Assembly (NCBI RefSeq): GCF_025362475.1
Contig: NZ_JANYGH010000024.1
Location: 2,164 to 66,163, forward strand
Source of the DNA: Mucilaginibacter sp.
GTDB lineage: Bacteria > Bacteroidota > Bacteroidia > Sphingobacteriales > Sphingobacteriaceae
Length of the DNA: 64,000 nucleotides
Direction: 5' to 3'
How positions within the stretch are numbered: position 1 is the stretch's first letter; the number at the start of each line of letters is the position of its first letter. Below, piece after piece: positions 6,962 through 59,169 of the stretch. The translations under genes and the position numbers were made by a program. A model generated the notes under the pieces. It made no database searches, had not been told where the DNA came from, and was given only the letters and a program-made list of their open reading frames with translations.

Positions 6962-7591
6962 ATGATTATGCGGATGTATGAGGACTATCTGATGCTGCTA
7001 TCACCGCCCGAAACGGTGAAACAGGAAATTGCCCGCTACAAAAAAGCATCGGCAAAACTTATAGGTGATTTCAAGAGCATGGATTCGCCGGCACATATCT
7101 CTATTATGCACATGGAACGCCAGAAGCCGTTTATGGAAGATAGAAGTATGCAGATGATGGAAAGCAGCTTAGCGGCACTCCCTCCTGTGCTGCTGCATGT
7201 AGATGGGTTTAACTATTTCCCTCACCTGCATAACAAAATGACCATTTACGCCCATATCCGTTCTACACCATCGGTTGAGCAGTGGTTCAGGCATTTAAAG
7301 GCCGTTCTGAAGATTAAAAAAACACTTTTGCCCCATATTACTATTGCCAGGAATATCCCGGAGGATGACTTTAATATCCTTTGGCCAAACTTTAGGCAAA
7401 GGCACATGGTAGAACCATTTTGGATCAACGAATTAAAAGTTAAAAAACGCGAAACTTTTGGCTATTCGCCCAAATGGGAAGATTTTAAAACATTCCGATT
7501 TAAAAACCCCATTGGGTTTGAGCATCAAATTGATACACTTATTAAAAAACATATTCAACCGGGAAATCAAAATCAAATCAATCTTTTTTAA
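6962..7591 (+). CDS. 2H phosphoesterase / 2'-5' RNA ligase family protein
   Basis: Two HxS/T motifs (PAHISI, LPHITI); ATG 6962 preferred to TTG 6944. Confidence 0.8.
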   Translation: MIMRMYEDYLMLLSPPETVKQEIARYKKASAKLIGDFKSMDSPAHISIMHMERQKPFMEDRSMQMMESSLAALPPVLLHVDGFNYFPHLHNKMTIYAHIRSTPSVEQWFRHLKAVLKIKKTLLPHITIARNIPEDDFNILWPNFRQRHMVEPFWINELKVKKRETFGYSPKWEDFKTFRFKNPIGFEHQIDTLIKKHIQPGNQNQINLF

Positions 7592-7667
7592 ACCTAAACC
7601 TTATTACTACCATTTAAACCTTATCCCTACCATTATTTATTTTATTACTTAACCCTAAAATCACAAA

Positions 7668-8201
7668 ATGAAAAAAGTTCACTTAACACTGATGTTATTA
7701 GCCGGCCTTACAACATCAGTACTGGCCCAAAAATTAGAGAAACCTGAAATTGACAAGATCAAAGGCGATACAACCTGGAGAACTTCAGATGAGCGTATCT
7801 ATACCCAGCTTGGCCTTGTTACGGGGCGCTTGCTTTACGTGTACACACAAAAAATAGGCAAAAGCTATGTGCTTGCATTCAGATTAGATAATGTGAACGG
7901 CCCGCGTGTATTTTCGATAGGTCCGGCTGACATAACCAACATTAAATTTACCGATAACAGCGTTCTTGACCTTTCACCAACTGTTGGCGGCGATCCTCAT
8001 GTAAGTTATAATACGGAGGCCAACCGGGTTATTACCCTGATATATTACGATCTGGCAAAAGAAGATATAGAGACTTTAAAAACAAAGTCGATATCAATTA
8101 TCCGGATTGCGACCGAAGGCGCCGGAAACTTCGATTATGAGATAAAACCTAAAAATTCAAATCTGGTAAAAAAAGATCTGGAGTTAATATTGACAAAGTA
8201 A
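7668..8201 (+). CDS. Secreted hypothetical protein
   Basis: Signal peptide MKKVHLTLMLLAGLTTSVLA-Q; no recognised domain. Confidence 0.75.
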   Translation: MKKVHLTLMLLAGLTTSVLAQKLEKPEIDKIKGDTTWRTSDERIYTQLGLVTGRLLYVYTQKIGKSYVLAFRLDNVNGPRVFSIGPADITNIKFTDNSVLDLSPTVGGDPHVSYNTEANRVITLIYYDLAKEDIETLKTKSISIIRIATEGAGNFDYEIKPKNSNLVKKDLELILTK

Positions 8202-8753: not shown

Positions 8754-8761
8754 TATATTTG
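8754..8761 (+). promoter_or_regulatory. Bacteroidetes -7 promoter element for SRP RNA
   Basis: TATATTTG (TAnnTTTG) 5 nt upstream of the RNA. Confidence 0.75.
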
Positions 8762-8766
8762 CGCCG

Positions 8767-8862
8767 GGGTAAGTCTTTTACGGCCAGCTCCTCTTGAACT
8801 CCCCCAGGGTGGGAACACAGCAAGGGTAGAGAGTTGAGCGGCGCGATAAAAGTAGCTTACCC
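8767..8862 (+). ncRNA. ffs: Small bacterial SRP RNA (4.5S)
   Basis: Long hairpin GGGTAAG...CTTACCC with helix-8 signature CAGG-GTG-GGAA-CAC-AGCA; T-run follows. Confidence 0.9.
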
Positions 8863-8951
8863 TTTTTTATTTTTCTATTTTTGCCAATTGGCAACAGGCT
8901 TAAAACCTTTCCACAGGTTTTGCATTCTATCAAAGTCTTAATATAAATTAA

Positions 8952-54872: not shown

Positions 54873-55705
54873 GAGAACTGCAAATAACCCAAACCATTAC
54901 CAACCGGGAAACCCGCGCGGTAGAAACCTATCTTCAGGAACTTGGCAAAGTGAACCTCATCAGCTCTGAGGAAGAGGTAACGCTAGCCAAACAAGTGAGG
55001 CAGGGAGATAAGGCAGCACTTGACAGGTTGGTTAAAACCAACCTGCGTTTCGTAGTTTCTGTAGCCAAAAAGTACCAGCATCAGGGTATGCCCCTATGCG
55101 ACCTGATTAGCGAGGGCAACCTTGGCCTAACCAAAGCGGCCAAAAAGTTCGACGAAACCAGGGGCTTTAAATTCATCTCTTTCGCGGTATGGTGGATAAG
55201 GCAGAGTATCCTTGCGGCCCTTACAGAAAACTCACGCATGATAAGGTTACCGATGAACAAGATTCACGATATATCAAAAATCAACAAAGCGATGGCCGTG
55301 GTTGAACAGGAAACCTTACGCAAACCTTCTGCAGAACAGATTGCCGAATACCTGGATATATCACCCGAAAAAGTTAATGAAGCTTTGTCTGTAGCGCCGT
55401 GGATAACCTCACTGGATAAGCCATTTGGGGATGACGATGACTATTCGCCTTATGAGCGGCTTTACGAAAAAGACAACAGAACTGATGCGACCCTTATGGC
55501 AGAGGATGCGTCATTGGAGATAACCATGCTCCTATCCCGTTTAAGCGAACGGGAACGTTCCGTAATCGATATGTCTTTTGGGCTTTCGGGAGATGGAGAA
55601 GTGCCCGCAGCAGAAATAGCCCGGTGTTTGGGACTCAGCAGGGAACGGGTAAGGCAAATCCTGAATGAAGCCCTTTATAAACTACGCAACATAAAATCCA
55701 CATGA
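54869..55705 (+). CDS. RpoD/SigA-type sigma-70 factor, divergent paralogue
   Basis: ITNRET, YLQELGK, NLRFVVSVAK, DLISEGNLGL, FDETRGFKFISFAVWWIRQS, LSRERVRQI. Confidence 0.9.
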   Translation: MRELQITQTITNRETRAVETYLQELGKVNLISSEEEVTLAKQVRQGDKAALDRLVKTNLRFVVSVAKKYQHQGMPLCDLISEGNLGLTKAAKKFDETRGFKFISFAVWWIRQSILAALTENSRMIRLPMNKIHDISKINKAMAVVEQETLRKPSAEQIAEYLDISPEKVNEALSVAPWITSLDKPFGDDDDYSPYERLYEKDNRTDATLMAEDASLEITMLLSRLSERERSVIDMSFGLSGDGEVPAAEIARCLGLSRERVRQILNEALYKLRNIKST

Positions 55706-57276
55706 AAAAGGTAAATGATATTGTTCAGAACCTATCACTGAAAAACAGGATTAATTACCAGTTGCCAACTGCAAAATTGGTGGAACAATGCCTGCAAAGG
55801 CAGGAAGGCGTATTAAATGATACAGGGGCCCTGGTGATATGTACCGGTGAGTTTACCGGCCGCAGTCCGGCTGATAAGTTCATTGTGAAAGATACACTGA
55901 CGGATAAAACGGTTAACTGGAATAAATTCAACAATCCAATATCTGAGGCATCTTTTCTAATTCTCCGCCGGGATATGACTGCCTACCTCAACCAGCAAGC
56001 CGAGGTATGGGTAAGGGACGGCTACGCCTGCGCCAACCCTGCATTTCAAATCAGCATCCGGATAGTAAATGAATGCCCTTCATCAAACCACTTTGCAGCT
56101 AACATGTTTATTGCGCCGGTTGCTGATGAGCTGAAAACCCTGCAACCCGACTGGACCATCATCCAGGCTGCCGGCTTTAAAGCAAACCCTGCAAAGCATG
56201 GCACCAGGCAAGGCAATTTCACCATTGTTTCCTTTACCCATAAAACCATCCTTATAGGCGGTACCGGGTATACCGGCGAAATCAAAAAAGCTGTATTTAC
56301 CGTGCTTAATTTTATTTTACCTGTTAATCACCGGGTGTTAAGCATGCACTGCAGCGCCAATGAAGGGCCGGAAGGCGACACCGCCCTGTTTTTCGGCTTA
56401 AGCGGAACCGGTAAAACAACGCTAAGTTCAGACCCATCCCGCAGACTGATAGGTGATGACGAACATGGCTGGGATGATACGGGTATTTTTAATTTTGAAG
56501 GGGGCTGCTATGCAAAAGTCATTAACCTTTCCGAAGAGCATGAGCCGGATATTTACCGGGCTATCCGCAAAGGGGCATTGGTTGAGAATACCTGTTTTAC
56601 CAGCGATACTAACCGGATTGATTTTGCAAACAAAACGATCACTGAAAATACAAGGGTAAGTTATCCATTAAATTTTATACCAAATACCAAAGCTCCTGCC
56701 CTATCCGGCATCCCCCAAAACGTGTTCTTTCTTACCTGCGATGCCTATGGTGTATTCCCGCCGGTGAGCAGACTAACCCATGAGCAGGCCATGTATTATT
56801 TTATCAGTGGATACACAGCCAAAGTTGCCGGTACAGAAGAAGGAGTAAAAGAACCGCAGGTTACTTTTAGCACCTGTTTTGGCGCACCTTTTTTGCCACT
56901 GCACCCTAACCTTTATGCCTCACTGCTGCAGGAGAAACTCGAAAAACATCAAACCAAAGTATGGATGATAAACACCGGCTGGTCTGGCGGACCTTATGGA
57001 ACCGGTAGCAGGATAAGCCTGGCATACACCCGGGCAATGATCTCTGCCGTTCTCGCTGGGCAACTGGAGAAGGTAGCTTACCGCTCGCACCAGGTTTTTG
57101 GTGTTTTTATTCCTGAAAGCTGTCCCGGCGTTCCTTCTGCTATTTTGAACCCAAGAGATACCTGGGCAAACAAACAGGATTACGATTTTATTGCGGGCAG
57201 ATTGGCCGATAAGTTCAGGGAGAATTTTAAACCATACCAGGATCAGTTACCCTCATCATTGGCGCATGCTATGTAA
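55702..57276 (+). CDS. pckA: PEP carboxykinase (ATP)
   Basis: TGRSPADKF, YTGEIKK, SMHCSAN, GLSGTGKTTLS, GDDEHGW, NFEGGCYAK, NTGWSGG. Confidence 0.96.
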   Translation: MKKVNDIVQNLSLKNRINYQLPTAKLVEQCLQRQEGVLNDTGALVICTGEFTGRSPADKFIVKDTLTDKTVNWNKFNNPISEASFLILRRDMTAYLNQQAEVWVRDGYACANPAFQISIRIVNECPSSNHFAANMFIAPVADELKTLQPDWTIIQAAGFKANPAKHGTRQGNFTIVSFTHKTILIGGTGYTGEIKKAVFTVLNFILPVNHRVLSMHCSANEGPEGDTALFFGLSGTGKTTLSSDPSRRLIGDDEHGWDDTGIFNFEGGCYAKVINLSEEHEPDIYRAIRKGALVENTCFTSDTNRIDFANKTITENTRVSYPLNFIPNTKAPALSGIPQNVFFLTCDAYGVFPPVSRLTHEQAMYYFISGYTAKVAGTEEGVKEPQVTFSTCFGAPFLPLHPNLYASLLQEKLEKHQTKVWMINTGWSGGPYGTGSRISLAYTRAMISAVLAGQLEKVAYRSHQVFGVFIPESCPGVPSAILNPRDTWANKQDYDFIAGRLADKFRENFKPYQDQLPSSLAHAM

Positions 57277-57329: not shown

Positions 57330-57695
57330 TTAAAATGTCCGTCTTGGACGTTTTTTCTTTACAGAACCGTCTGGCTTCTCCACTTTGTGATAACCGGGTG
57401 ATTCAAAAGAGGGTTTGCTTGCAACAGGCGATGGCTTTTGCGCAGACGCTCTTTTATCCTCGGCTATCCTCACACTGAGCTGCCTGGTTTCTATCTCCAT
57501 ACCGTCAAAAGCGGCGATAGCCCTGTCTGCACCCGCCTGATCGGTCATATGAACAAAGGCATAGCCCTTGCTTTCACCTGTATCTATATCCGTAACAATC
57601 TTCACCATTTCTACCTGGCCTTCAGCCATAAACAACTCCAGCAGTGCAATTTCCTGCATAGTTCGTGGTATACCCACAACAAATAATTTTACCAT
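57330..57695 (-). CDS. RRM-domain RNA-binding protein
   Basis: RNP2 KLFVVGI, RNP1 KGYAFVHM, basic tail KKKRPRR. Confidence 0.9.
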   Translation of the reverse strand: MVKLFVVGIPRTMQEIALLELFMAEGQVEMVKIVTDIDTGESKGYAFVHMTDQAGADRAIAAFDGMEIETRQLSVRIAEDKRASAQKPSPVASKPSFESPGYHKVEKPDGSVKKKRPRRTF

Positions 57696-57838: not shown

Positions 57839-58220
57839 TCAAATTGTTTGCCCGTTGATGGTTTTTACAAAATTTTTGCCGCCATCATCCAAAACCAACA
57901 TCCAGTCTTATCCGTACCCGTTTGTCGGCGGTATAACCTTTTTAGTTACGTTTGGCATGTTGCCAATAACTGTTGTTTAACCATCGCGCGGGTTATACCA
58001 GTAAGCGTATAAATTACCTAACCATATAATGTTAGTTCTGCTTTTATAACGCCTGGCTAACCATGCGGCAAATATAGCAGCATTATTATCATTAAAAACC
58101 TCCGGACCAGCGCCCCAGGTATTTTTATATAATTTATCGCCCCATGTTGGCAAAACAGCAATATTCAAGTGATACTTTTCTGCCCGGTTAATAAAAACAC
58201 ATTTCCGCATGAACGAAGAT
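57839..58220 (-). pseudogene. Relic of a DUF4038/GH140 (apiosidase-like) gene
   Basis: AVLPTWGD...RYKSRTNIIWL joined directly to C-terminal AYWYNPRDG, then frameshifted PPTNGYG*DWMLVLDD. Confidence 0.7.
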
Positions 58221-58611
58221 AGGTAAAACGCTAATTACTAAGCCTTTATTTATTCAACCAACAGCGTAGCTTAAACCCCCATAAAAATACTTATAGTCAA
58301 TAAAATAATAACCAATCACCTCATCAGTATACTCCCTAACAATTAATTGAAAGAAACCGTCGCCAACCTAAAAATACCTCTGCCATATAGGGGCAATTGA
58401 CTGTGGCCCTGGCCTGATGTTTGCCTAAAGCAGAAAAATTTAAGAATGCAATCTCATGCCTAAAAAAGAAACTTCCACTACTAATAAATAAATTTATTTA
58501 TTAAGAAATATGAAATGACTTAATAGTATACAAATTATAAATTTGGCAATTTTTCATCCATAACGATGGCCGTATTTTGATTTTTACAATTTGATTTTAT
58601 ATACTTACAAA

Positions 58612-58698
58612 ATCTATTAGGTAAGCATCCTGCTTACCATTGTGATAAGGTTTAGGTTTAAAGTCCCCGGCGGCGAGCGCTTAGGGGACTTTTATTTT
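58612..58698 (+). ncRNA. Candidate small RNA (hairpin - unpaired core - terminator)
   Basis: GGTAAGCA-TCC-TGCTTACC stem, core ATTGTGATAAGGTTTAGGTTT, AAAGTCCCC/GGGGACTTT stem plus TATTTT; TATACTTA -7-like box upstream; ends approximate. Confidence 0.55.
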
Positions 58699-58896
58699 GA
58701 TTTCGAATATTCTGCAATATGGTGTTGCCACAAAACCTTGTATTATTACACTTACTTTCAACAGAAATAATAAATACTGATCACATAAATTACCCGGTTG
58801 TTTTCGTAATTATTTTTTTTAAAAAAATTCGCTTTCCTGCCAGCAATAAAAAGTAATTTCGCCATCTGTTCATTCAGGATACTACTTAATTAATTT

Positions 58897-59169
58897 ATGT
58901 CTGCAGATAATTCCATTTCACCCGTTCAAGCTGACCTTGTCCAAATTATTTCTAAATATATTTTACTTGAAGAAAGCCGCAAACACTTAAAAGGGCGGTG
59001 CCCCTTTCATAAGGACCTGGCAACCTCATTAATGGTTTCTCCTGATAAAAATATTTTTCAATGCTTTGGCTGCGGCAAAGGTGGTGGCCCCGTTGAGTTT
59101 GTAATGGCAATAGAAAATAAAACACGCGAAGAAGCGATACATCTTATCGCCACACAAAAACCTTTTTAA
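58897..59169 (+). CDS. Stand-alone CHC2 zinc-finger (DnaG ZBD-like) protein
   Basis: CPFH...CFGC, GGGPVEFVMAIEN; stop after 90 aa, no TOPRIM continuation. Confidence 0.8.
   Translation: MSADNSISPVQADLVQIISKYILLEESRKHLKGRCPFHKDLATSLMVSPDKNIFQCFGCGKGGGPVEFVMAIENKTREEAIHLIATQKPF

Follow-up and report, generated by a model that had tools for sequence, protein, structure and literature searches.

An element on the plus strand at about 58610-58698 of the window (the whole 64,000-nucleotide stretch of Mucilaginibacter DNA that was analysed) is probably one paralogue of a small RNA (sRNA) family found throughout the Sphingobacteriaceae, whose members would act by pairing in trans and would connect several promoters to common targets. 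Each RNA would be about 85-95 nt long, with a 5' hairpin whose sequence is free to vary, followed by an essentially invariant and unpaired segment, AUUGUGAUAAGGUUUAGGUU(G/U)AA, and a Rho-independent terminator. The invariant segment would pair with A/C-rich leaders or translation-initiation regions, with translation or mRNA stability being changed as a result. Judged by the comparative data presented below, the family is real and previously undescribed, of a kind already known as sibling sRNAs. Its existence, architecture, strand, covariation and distribution, the classes of promoter motif and the complementary sites with their partial conservation are all shown here. It is from sequence that we infer transcription, regulation by pairing and the direction of its effect.

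Anatomy of the focal element and selection on a plus-strand RNA

The focal copy lies in an interval, 58211-58896, in which only short mechanical open reading frames (ORFs) are present. Its parts and its neighbours are given below, with the genes assigned by Pfam and the promoter features by motif.

55702-57276 (+): PEP carboxykinase gene
57330-57695 (-): RRM protein gene
57977-58210 (-): apiosidase-like gene fragment, 77 aa
58577-58607 (+): promoter-like region of the focal paralogue, TTGATT-N17-TATACT in a generic scan
58600-58607 (+): Bacteroidetes-style -7-like box TATACTTA
58620-58638 (+): 5' hairpin, perfect 8-bp stem GGTAAGCA/TGCTTACC (58620-58627 with 58631-58638), loop TCC
58639-58659 (+): 21-nt core ATTGTGATAAGGTTTAGGTTT, seed-like, between both hairpins
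58639-58661 (+): seed-like segment ATTGTGATAAGGTTTAGGTT(T)AA, near-invariant across the family and predicted to be unpaired in the focal centroid fold
58660-58698 (+): Rho-independent terminator, 9-bp stem AAAGTCCCC/GGGGACTTT (58660-58668 with 58684-58692), then TTTTATTTT
58897-59169 (+): gene for an orphan CHC2 zinc-finger protein, 90 aa

A GDSL lipase and a FadL-type porin (both by Pfam) are encoded further along, beyond the CHC2 gene, and a distance of 946 nt separates the focal copy from the RRM gene. Within the terminator, an inner helix (GGCG/CGCT) closes a GCGAG loop, and TTTTATTTT reaches position 58698. An earlier note, made from the letters of the window, had described the 8-bp 5' stem, the 21-nt core, the 9-bp GC-rich stem with its T-run and the -7-like box, and all of these were found where it had placed them. 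The invariant segment contains two AGGUU(U/G) units, and position 58659 is T in the focal copy vs G in the family consensus. Folding of the 87-nt focal element with RNAfold gave -30.7 kcal/mol (z = -3.3 vs dinucleotide shuffles), with the core unpaired in the centroid structure. When 94-nt windows overrunning the probable RNA ends were folded, the minimum free energy structure paired part of the seed in most copies, so that single-strandedness is a prediction for the focal RNA and is not proven family-wide.

The evidence for selection has been drawn from 184 distinct copies gathered from all fetched loci, among which ATTGTGATAAGGTTTAGGTT(G/T)AA is nearly invariant. Across 29 copies drawn from about 12 genera the 23-mer ATTGTGATAAGGTTTAGGTTGAA shows 100% identity, with the sequence and length of the terminator varying freely, and no change in the seed segment is seen among 25 Mucilaginibacter copies. 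In 183 of the 184 copies the core is preceded by a 5' hairpin of at least 5 bp that ends 1-5 nt ahead of it; these hairpins comprise 149 different sequences, with a mean dG of -9.8 kcal/mol vs -2.5 for shuffles. The variable hairpin was not structurally aligned by MAFFT; for this reason the covariance model used here (R1) comprises core and terminator only, and the hairpin was tested on a geometry-matched ungapped alignment of 24 copies. In this subset 98.6% of the cells of the 9-bp 5' stem are paired and compensatory changes on both sides occur in seven of its nine pairs; the covariation score was reached by none of 500 shuffles, and slid controls collapse. In the terminator, six of the seven modelled pairs have double changes or covariation, and 91% of cells are paired vs 72% in shuffles.

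Strand-specific properties point in the same direction. In 183 of 184 copies the predicted fold of the plus strand is more stable than that of the minus strand (-34.1 vs -23.9 kcal/mol), G-U pairs constitute 18% of predicted pairs and would become A-C mismatches on the other strand, and 177 of 184 copies have a T-run of four or more T after the 3' hairpin. There is accordingly strong comparative support for selection acting on an RNA from the plus strand. The proposal in the earlier note of a plus-strand, independently terminated sRNA gene with a seed-like core is thus upheld, as far as sequence can carry it, by covariation in both hairpins, strand bias, G-U content and T-run.

Copies, distribution and promoters

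Seven copies are present in the genome from which the window derives (6.45 Mb, 79 contigs; G000), including the focal copy on contig C71. The earlier note had proposed a paralogue count; that core and terminator belong to a multi-copy family it had not recognised. The copies besides the focal one are as follows.

C6:1583-1665 (-): full paralogue
C57:41866-41948 (+): full paralogue
C44:58507-58590 (-): full paralogue
C52:755-837 (+): full paralogue
C52:240765-240837 (+): full paralogue
C8:205340-205400 (+): copy without an obvious 5' hairpin

The common architecture of the copies is a hairpin of unrelated sequence ending 1-5 nt on the 5' side of the core, the invariant core itself and a terminator whose stem differs from copy to copy. 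The U variant of the seed occurs in the focal, C57 and C6 copies, G being the ancestral variant. Matches to core and terminator have been detected in all 24 other genomes sampled from the same genus, at 4-22 per genome, and R1 matched in 56 of 121 sampled Sphingobacteriaceae genomes, representing 23 of 37 genera. One copy per genome is the usual number in R1-positive Sphingobacteriaceae, while two other genera reach 6-20. In one genome, five copies about 157 nt apart form a tandem array. Among some 290 genomes from other families of the class, just one R1 match was obtained. The exact 23-mer ATTGTGATAAGGTTTAGGTTGAA occurs at no fewer than 119 loci in public genomes; among the matches listed, nearly all belong to Mucilaginibacter, with some from Hufsiella, Daejeonella, Pedobacter and further Sphingobacteriaceae, and the few metagenome-assembled genome (MAG) records carrying it under other labels are probably mis-binned.

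Searches of existing collections returned no description of this family. With Rfam 15 at gathering thresholds, the sole match over the whole window was the SRP RNA at 8760-8866, and at E<=10 over 58200-59000 the best overlapping match was ctRNA_p42d, with 19.7 bits (gathering score 50) and to the terminator only; the absence of an Rfam match, on which the novelty suggested in the earlier note depended, therefore held at both settings. None of the papers in the library searched had the motif in either orientation, and a keyword search found no sRNA description for Mucilaginibacter, Pedobacter and relatives, and none of the focal RNA family.

Genomic context separates the ancestral copy from the extra ones. 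In 70 of the 159 copies with enough flanking sequence, the RNA lies 90-320 nt downstream, on the same strand, of genes for an ECF sigma factor and an anti-sigma-like membrane protein. At these loci the sigma gene (about 193 aa) comes first, the gene for the anti-sigma-like membrane protein (161-173 aa) second and the RNA third, and their ECF sigma factors share 62-89% identity with that encoded at C44:59241-59822. The copy linked to these two genes is the ancestral copy; in the window's genome it is represented by the C44 copy, and the focal copy on C71 is an extra paralogue.

Promoters have been assigned by their motifs, which suggest three classes. The first, TGGYAY-N5-TTGY, has the GG-N10-GY spacing of sigma-54 promoters and was found in 64 of 76 syntenic copies vs 1 of 920 random positions; neither the focal copy nor most of the other paralogues have it. 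RpoN and at least 11 sigma-54 activators are encoded in the window's genome. The second, AAAACwwwT-N13-CGTT, is of the ECF type (AAC/CGT) and occurs at a fixed distance in single-copy genera. An ECF-like AAC-N16-18-CGT motif was detected in 29 of 108 non-syntenic copies vs 15 of 920 random positions (1.6%), the focal copy again lacking it, and the adjacent sigma gene has a different ECF-type promoter of its own, TGTAACC-N16-CGTC. The third is the Bacteroidetes housekeeping -7 box, TAnnTTTG, which 22 of 108 non-syntenic copies have some 12 nt ahead of the hairpin vs 23 of 920 random positions (2.5%).

The focal copy is a strict match to none of these three classes. The focal unit of about 110 nt, which includes TTTTTATATACTTGCGC and the GGTAAGC...GCTTAC hairpin, is 84-90% identical in five other Mucilaginibacter species, where the flanks are unrelated. 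These five orthologues keep TTTT(T)ATATACTTGCGC at the same distance, with the focal copy having A for the final G, and their box reads TATACTTG vs TATACTTA in the focal copy. Because of this deviation, the focal copy may be weakly expressed. In a further lineage, a copy with an ECF-like promoter and a TGTAAGTGC.../TATAAATGC... hairpin is found 660-790 nt upstream of a gene for a glycine-rich RRM protein, an arrangement that at least 18 species share, with both on the same strand; RRM genes are present in 20 of about 180 fetched loci vs about one expected. The promoter inputs would then be sigma-54-like for the ancestral copy, ECF-like for others, including the lineage upstream of the RRM gene, and of the housekeeping -7 type for the focal lineage. 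Since the paralogues share the seed and differ in their promoters, different signals would converge on one target set.

Several other readings have to be weighed against these data. The earlier note had offered a minus-strand leader with a 7-codon ORF (MVSRMLT) as its alternative, and in the focal copy the reverse complement of the core does run into an ATG. Such an ORF would sit in the 5' hairpin, of which 149 different sequences exist, on a strand that folds worse in 183 of 184 copies and opposite the strand bearing the T-run. The one-strand folding bias, the G-U pairs, the T-run and the hypervariable hairpin exclude this reading, to which we leave hardly any probability. A DNA-level repeat that is no gene in itself, either of the REP/MITE kind or serving recombination or attachment and joined to a terminator, would fit the multi-copy intergenic occurrence, the location of some copies near recombinase, phage-like or primase-zinc-finger genes and the five-copy tandem array in one genome. 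It is nonetheless very unlikely, considering that the hairpins covary with G-U pairs formed on one strand only and favour the plus strand almost without exception (183 of 184), that promoter motifs are conserved at fixed distances, that most genera have a single copy in a syntenic position, and that terminal inverted repeats and target-site duplications were not seen.

Slightly less probable still is that the RNA guides a DNA-binding system associated with ECF sigma factors, the long matches being its DNA targets. The dCas12f-sigmaE systems of Bacteroidetes offer a precedent, with guide RNAs encoded downstream of rpoE-dcas12f loci, beside nuclease-dead Cas12f and a sigma gene without an anti-sigma gene (PMC13472631). 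They share with the present family their host group, the location beside ECF sigma genes (the ancestral copy lying immediately downstream of one) and long matches upstream of genes. The loci examined here differ in carrying a canonical anti-sigma gene and no dCas12f gene or Cas12f-sized ORF. In addition, the RNA is small (about 90 nt), its conserved segment is internal with a terminator behind it, there is no long scaffold with a 3' guide, and most single-copy genomes are without a second near-perfect match. A less remote reading, although one that we still regard as improbable, is that the family is functional and the focal copy a silent or decaying paralogue that contributes nothing. The TATACTTA box, kept as TATACTTG in the five orthologues, the mismatch to all three strict promoter classes and the position in an AT-rich, ORF-free stretch adjoining a gene fragment would all agree with decay; on the other side, the hairpins, seed and T-run of the focal copy are all intact, and its U seed variant fits two long sites in its own genome better than the ancestral G does.

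Candidate targets and the possible role of the invariant segment

The reading as a pairing sRNA leads to the question of targets, for which the window's genome was scanned position by position for pairing with the 23-nt seed, with G-U pairs allowed and a reversed seed as control. Up to 21 pairs, sites occurred in background numbers equal to those of the control. Leaving the sRNA genes aside, only two sites attain 22 or more of 23 pairs: C71:9749-9771, inside the window, with 22 pairs (20 Watson-Crick), and C57:132747-132769, with 23 pairs (21 Watson-Crick). Both are in sense orientation upstream of genes, both fit the U seed variant better than the ancestral G, and the four mismatches across the two are all transitions that keep G-U pairing. 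The features around the site in the window are listed here.

7586-7608 (+), C71:9749-9771: candidate target site 1, TTTTAAACCTAAACCTTATTACT, 18 Watson-Crick pairs in a row, 22 of 23 with two G-U pairs
7615-7625 (+): putative target site 2, TAAACCTTATC, 11-nt perfect complement of GAUAAGGUUUA
7668-8201 (+): candidate regulated gene, encoding a 177-aa signal-peptide protein of no Pfam family

Site 1 belongs to the leader of the 177-aa gene, 59-82 nt ahead of it, and includes the stop codon of the preceding gene, which is 2H-phosphoesterase-like. The 18-nt perfect pairing with 7587-7604 to which the earlier note had drawn attention was recovered, TTTAAACCTAAACCTTAT being the exact reverse complement of 58645-58662, and G-U pairs extend it to 22 of 23; an exact 15-18-mer match in 6.45 Mb is far beyond chance. 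As read from the sequence, the focal U variant is better suited to this site than the ancestral G. Site 2 is the second unit of a 19-nt direct repeat, at a spacing of 21 nt from the first. Homologues of the 177-aa protein have been found in 7 of 41 Mucilaginibacter genomes, and an anti-seed site occurs upstream of four of the seven genes (the window copy counted), down to 34-41% protein identity. The AACCTAAACCTTA-type sites lie at about -82 in G441 (76% identity) and at -22..-8 from the ATG in both G444 (41%) and G436 (34%), where the site is weaker in the latter; in G444 and G436 they overlap the stop codon of an upstream ssb-like gene. In view of this recurrence, 7587-7604 may be considered a credible target site, in line with the earlier note. 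That note had further imagined a single sRNA linking a sigma/RRM block to an SOS-linked locus, a notion that finds no support here, as the focal copy is one of seven paralogues and the ancestral context is the ECF operon on C44.

Evidence from the remainder of the genome is less clear. The C57:132747 site was not found upstream of any of eight homologues of its gene, an 80%-identical orthologue included, and is for this reason ambiguous, possibly lying at a decayed gene copy. Across 5,041 crude translation-initiation regions (TIRs) of the window's genome, derived from ORF-based gene calls, duplex energies were no better than those of shuffled seeds. Anti-seed k-mers in these regions were 2-3-fold above reversed and complementary controls, but this excess vanished against 2,000 mononucleotide, composition-matched shuffles (p ~0.3), and it was consequently judged compositional and rejected as target evidence. 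The regulon of mRNAs with a common leader motif that had been suggested thus gained no statistical enrichment from duplex energies or k-mer counts.

In 20 other genomes, sites with up to three mismatches to the seed numbered 83 vs 9 for the reversed control, most of them being sRNA genes. Of twenty sites inspected, four proved to be diverged copies of the sRNA and seven to fall within coding sequence; another four are at -27..-3 of start codons (out of about 16 matches other than sRNA genes), three have a terminator behind them in the target sense and two are intergenic sites of other kinds. The three terminator-followed sites may be 3' UTRs or sponge RNAs. One site at a start codon belongs to the leader of a TonB-dependent receptor gene in another genus (g19), where TCAACCTAAAC(C/T)T is retained in place by four of five orthologues and its C-to-T changes would still allow wobble pairing; with 74% conservation over the entire leader, the persistence of this site counts as weak evidence. 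Recurrent near-matches in the coding regions of apaG and infA were rejected as targets, since they resemble the seed in sense orientation on account of conserved protein sequence.

Trans-acting base-pairing is the best-supported reading of these observations and on balance a likely one, based on one conserved leader site and several suggestive ones. The candidate targets would be the secreted 177-aa protein gene at 7668-8201 and the TonB-dependent receptor in the other genus.

The foremost alternative, which is unlikely and still deserves consideration, is that the RNA is real and works mainly through a protein partner, the invariant segment serving as a binding or sequestration site, for instance for an RRM-domain protein, whether as a CsrB/RsmZ-like or 6S-like decoy or with the protein as an obligatory chaperone. 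An invariance of 23 nt across a bacterial family exceeds what is usually needed of a seed pairing with diverse mRNAs, and a protein partner could be its cause; genome-wide target enrichment was not found, and the RRM genes recur at the fetched loci as described (20 of about 180 vs about one expected), one paralogue lineage being syntenic, in 18 species or more, with the glycine-rich RRM gene some 700 nt further downstream and the focal copy lying 946 nt from such a gene. This adjacency, however, is limited to one lineage and may be plain synteny, anti-seed sites sought in the leaders of neighbouring RRM genes were in no case conserved, and the long, partly conserved sense complementary sites upstream of genes are not predicted by a pure decoy. 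A bolder reading, in which the family forms a regulatory hub atypical of the phylum, is somewhat less probable again. Here one 23-nt RNA word would have been wired by duplication to sigma-54, ECF and housekeeping control, perhaps with RRM proteins as the Hfq-independent chaperones of the Sphingobacteriaceae, and leaders of some mobile-element or accessory genes, such as the ssb-linked 177-aa family, would have evolved to plug into it. In its strongest form, a dedicated protein would recognise the invariant segment, and a ribonucleoprotein regulator of a new type would take the place of the classical sRNA that pairs through a seed.

Relation to known systems and significance

As a trans-pairing sRNA family, the elements described here would in function most resemble sibling sRNAs such as Qrr1-5 and the sigmaE-linked envelope sRNAs, and they are homologues of neither. 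The sigma-54/LuxO-dependent Qrr1-5 of Vibrio likewise occur as several paralogues of about 100 nt per genome, with a long, absolutely conserved pairing segment and a terminator, and the sigma-54-type GG-N10-GY motif of the ancestral copy, together with the presumed use of one seed by several inputs, adds to the likeness. They differ in belonging to another phylum and in showing no homology (RF00378 was unmatched at E<=10), and some paralogues here have ECF-like or housekeeping promoters. To our knowledge, the host phylum lacks Hfq.

The SigmaE-dependent envelope sRNAs include RybB, MicA and MicL in enterobacteria, VrrA/MicV in Vibrio and FoxI/FoxJ in Fusobacterium. Common features are a genetic or regulatory tie to an ECF sigma factor, a short, terminator-ended RNA and an ultra-conserved seed, which here would act on mRNAs for secreted or outer-membrane proteins, the candidates being a signal-peptide protein and a TonB-dependent receptor. 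Unlike in those RNAs, the seed here is internal, behind a 5' hairpin, and not at the 5' end; AAC...CGT is found in some copies only and differs from TGTAACC-N16-CGTC, the promoter of the adjacent sigma gene. Multi-copy paralogous sRNA families are also present in Bacteroides, FopS being an example, as are sRNAs associated with RbpB. These belong to the same phylum, are multi-copy and may have a comparable link to RRM-type RNA-binding proteins; the family described here is from another taxon, the Sphingobacteriaceae, and has no known sequence relation to them.

We know of few regulatory RNAs in Bacteroidota outside gut Bacteroides, and of none described for the Sphingobacteriaceae (Mucilaginibacter, Pedobacter and relatives). 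The present family is easily recognised, occurring in dozens of genera with up to about 20 duplicates in some genomes, and is connected with an ECF sigma/anti-sigma operon, promoters of the sigma-54 type and genes for RRM proteins. It may become an Rfam entry and in this way improve genome annotation, and it provides specialists in Bacteroidota RNA biology with a directly testable lead. For the Sphingobacteriaceae, it would constitute an entry point into post-transcriptional control, envelope and stress signalling and Hfq-independent sRNA action.

Surroundings of the sRNA copies

The AT-rich region that holds the focal sRNA copy is flanked by two features:

Window 57977-58210, - strand: apiosidase-like fragment of 77 aa, a gene remnant
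Window 58897-59169, + strand: orphan CHC2 DnaG-type zinc-finger protein of 90 aa

The occurrence of this remnant and this orphan protein around the sRNA region suggests past rearrangement or mobile DNA. RRM genes are enriched about 20-fold in the vicinity of sRNA copies. In one paralogue lineage, represented in at least 18 Mucilaginibacter species, a glycine-rich RRM-protein gene is located 660-790 nt downstream on the same strand (loci L012, L023, L024, L032, L035, L069, L083, L086, L094, L103, L104, L106, L131, L142, L157, L160, and L198), and the focal copy lies 946 nt from another RRM gene (window 57330-57695). The conserved ECF sigma gene that lies upstream of the ancestral copy carries an autoregulation-type promoter motif of its own, TGTAACC-N16-CGTC (L036, L045, L046, L054, and L058), from which the AAAAC-N17-CGTT motif of the sRNA differs.

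Copy number and distribution

Five sRNA copies have been detected in a tandem array with a spacing of about 157 nt (G129:C16:191696-192384), in a genus whose genomes hold 8-20 copies each. Paralogues with a changed seed (e.g., CTGATATGGTTTAGGTTAAA) and an intact terminator, found in G019 (L226) and G003 (L227), are diverging siblings. The sole match outside the bacterial family (G303:C57:2217-2275, L059; 68.5 bits) stems from horizontal transfer or else from mis-binning of the contig, and the exact 23-mers in MAGs with Janthinobacterium and Nomurabacteria labels (L097, L132) are probably contamination.

Pairing sites and the leader of the candidate target gene

One further pairing site for the seed occurs in the window's own genome, G000:

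C57:132747-132769, + strand: 23/23 pairing with the seed, 21 of the pairs Watson-Crick

A possible 46-codon ORF directly follows, and a gene for a 493-aa secreted repeat protein lies some 150-190 nt downstream. Since the site shows no conservation in relatives, it could be what is left of a copy of the sRNA that has decayed. At L232 (G018) and at L233 and L234 (G019), an anti-seed sequence runs directly into a terminator hairpin in target-sense orientation; these elements could be sponge RNAs, or else sites within 3' UTRs.

Two features were located in and near the candidate target gene, which encodes a 177-aa signal-peptide protein:

Window 7596-7634, + strand: in the leader, a pair of 19-nt direct repeats with a spacing of 21 nt, AAACCTTATtaCTACCATT and AAACCTTATccCTACCATT
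Window 8760-8866, + strand: signal-recognition-particle RNA (Rfam Bacteroidales_small_SRP, 97.6 bits)

The signal-recognition-particle RNA follows the candidate target gene at a distance of about 0.6 kb. The direct repeats in the leader could represent two sRNA sites, or the binding site of a DNA-binding regulator.
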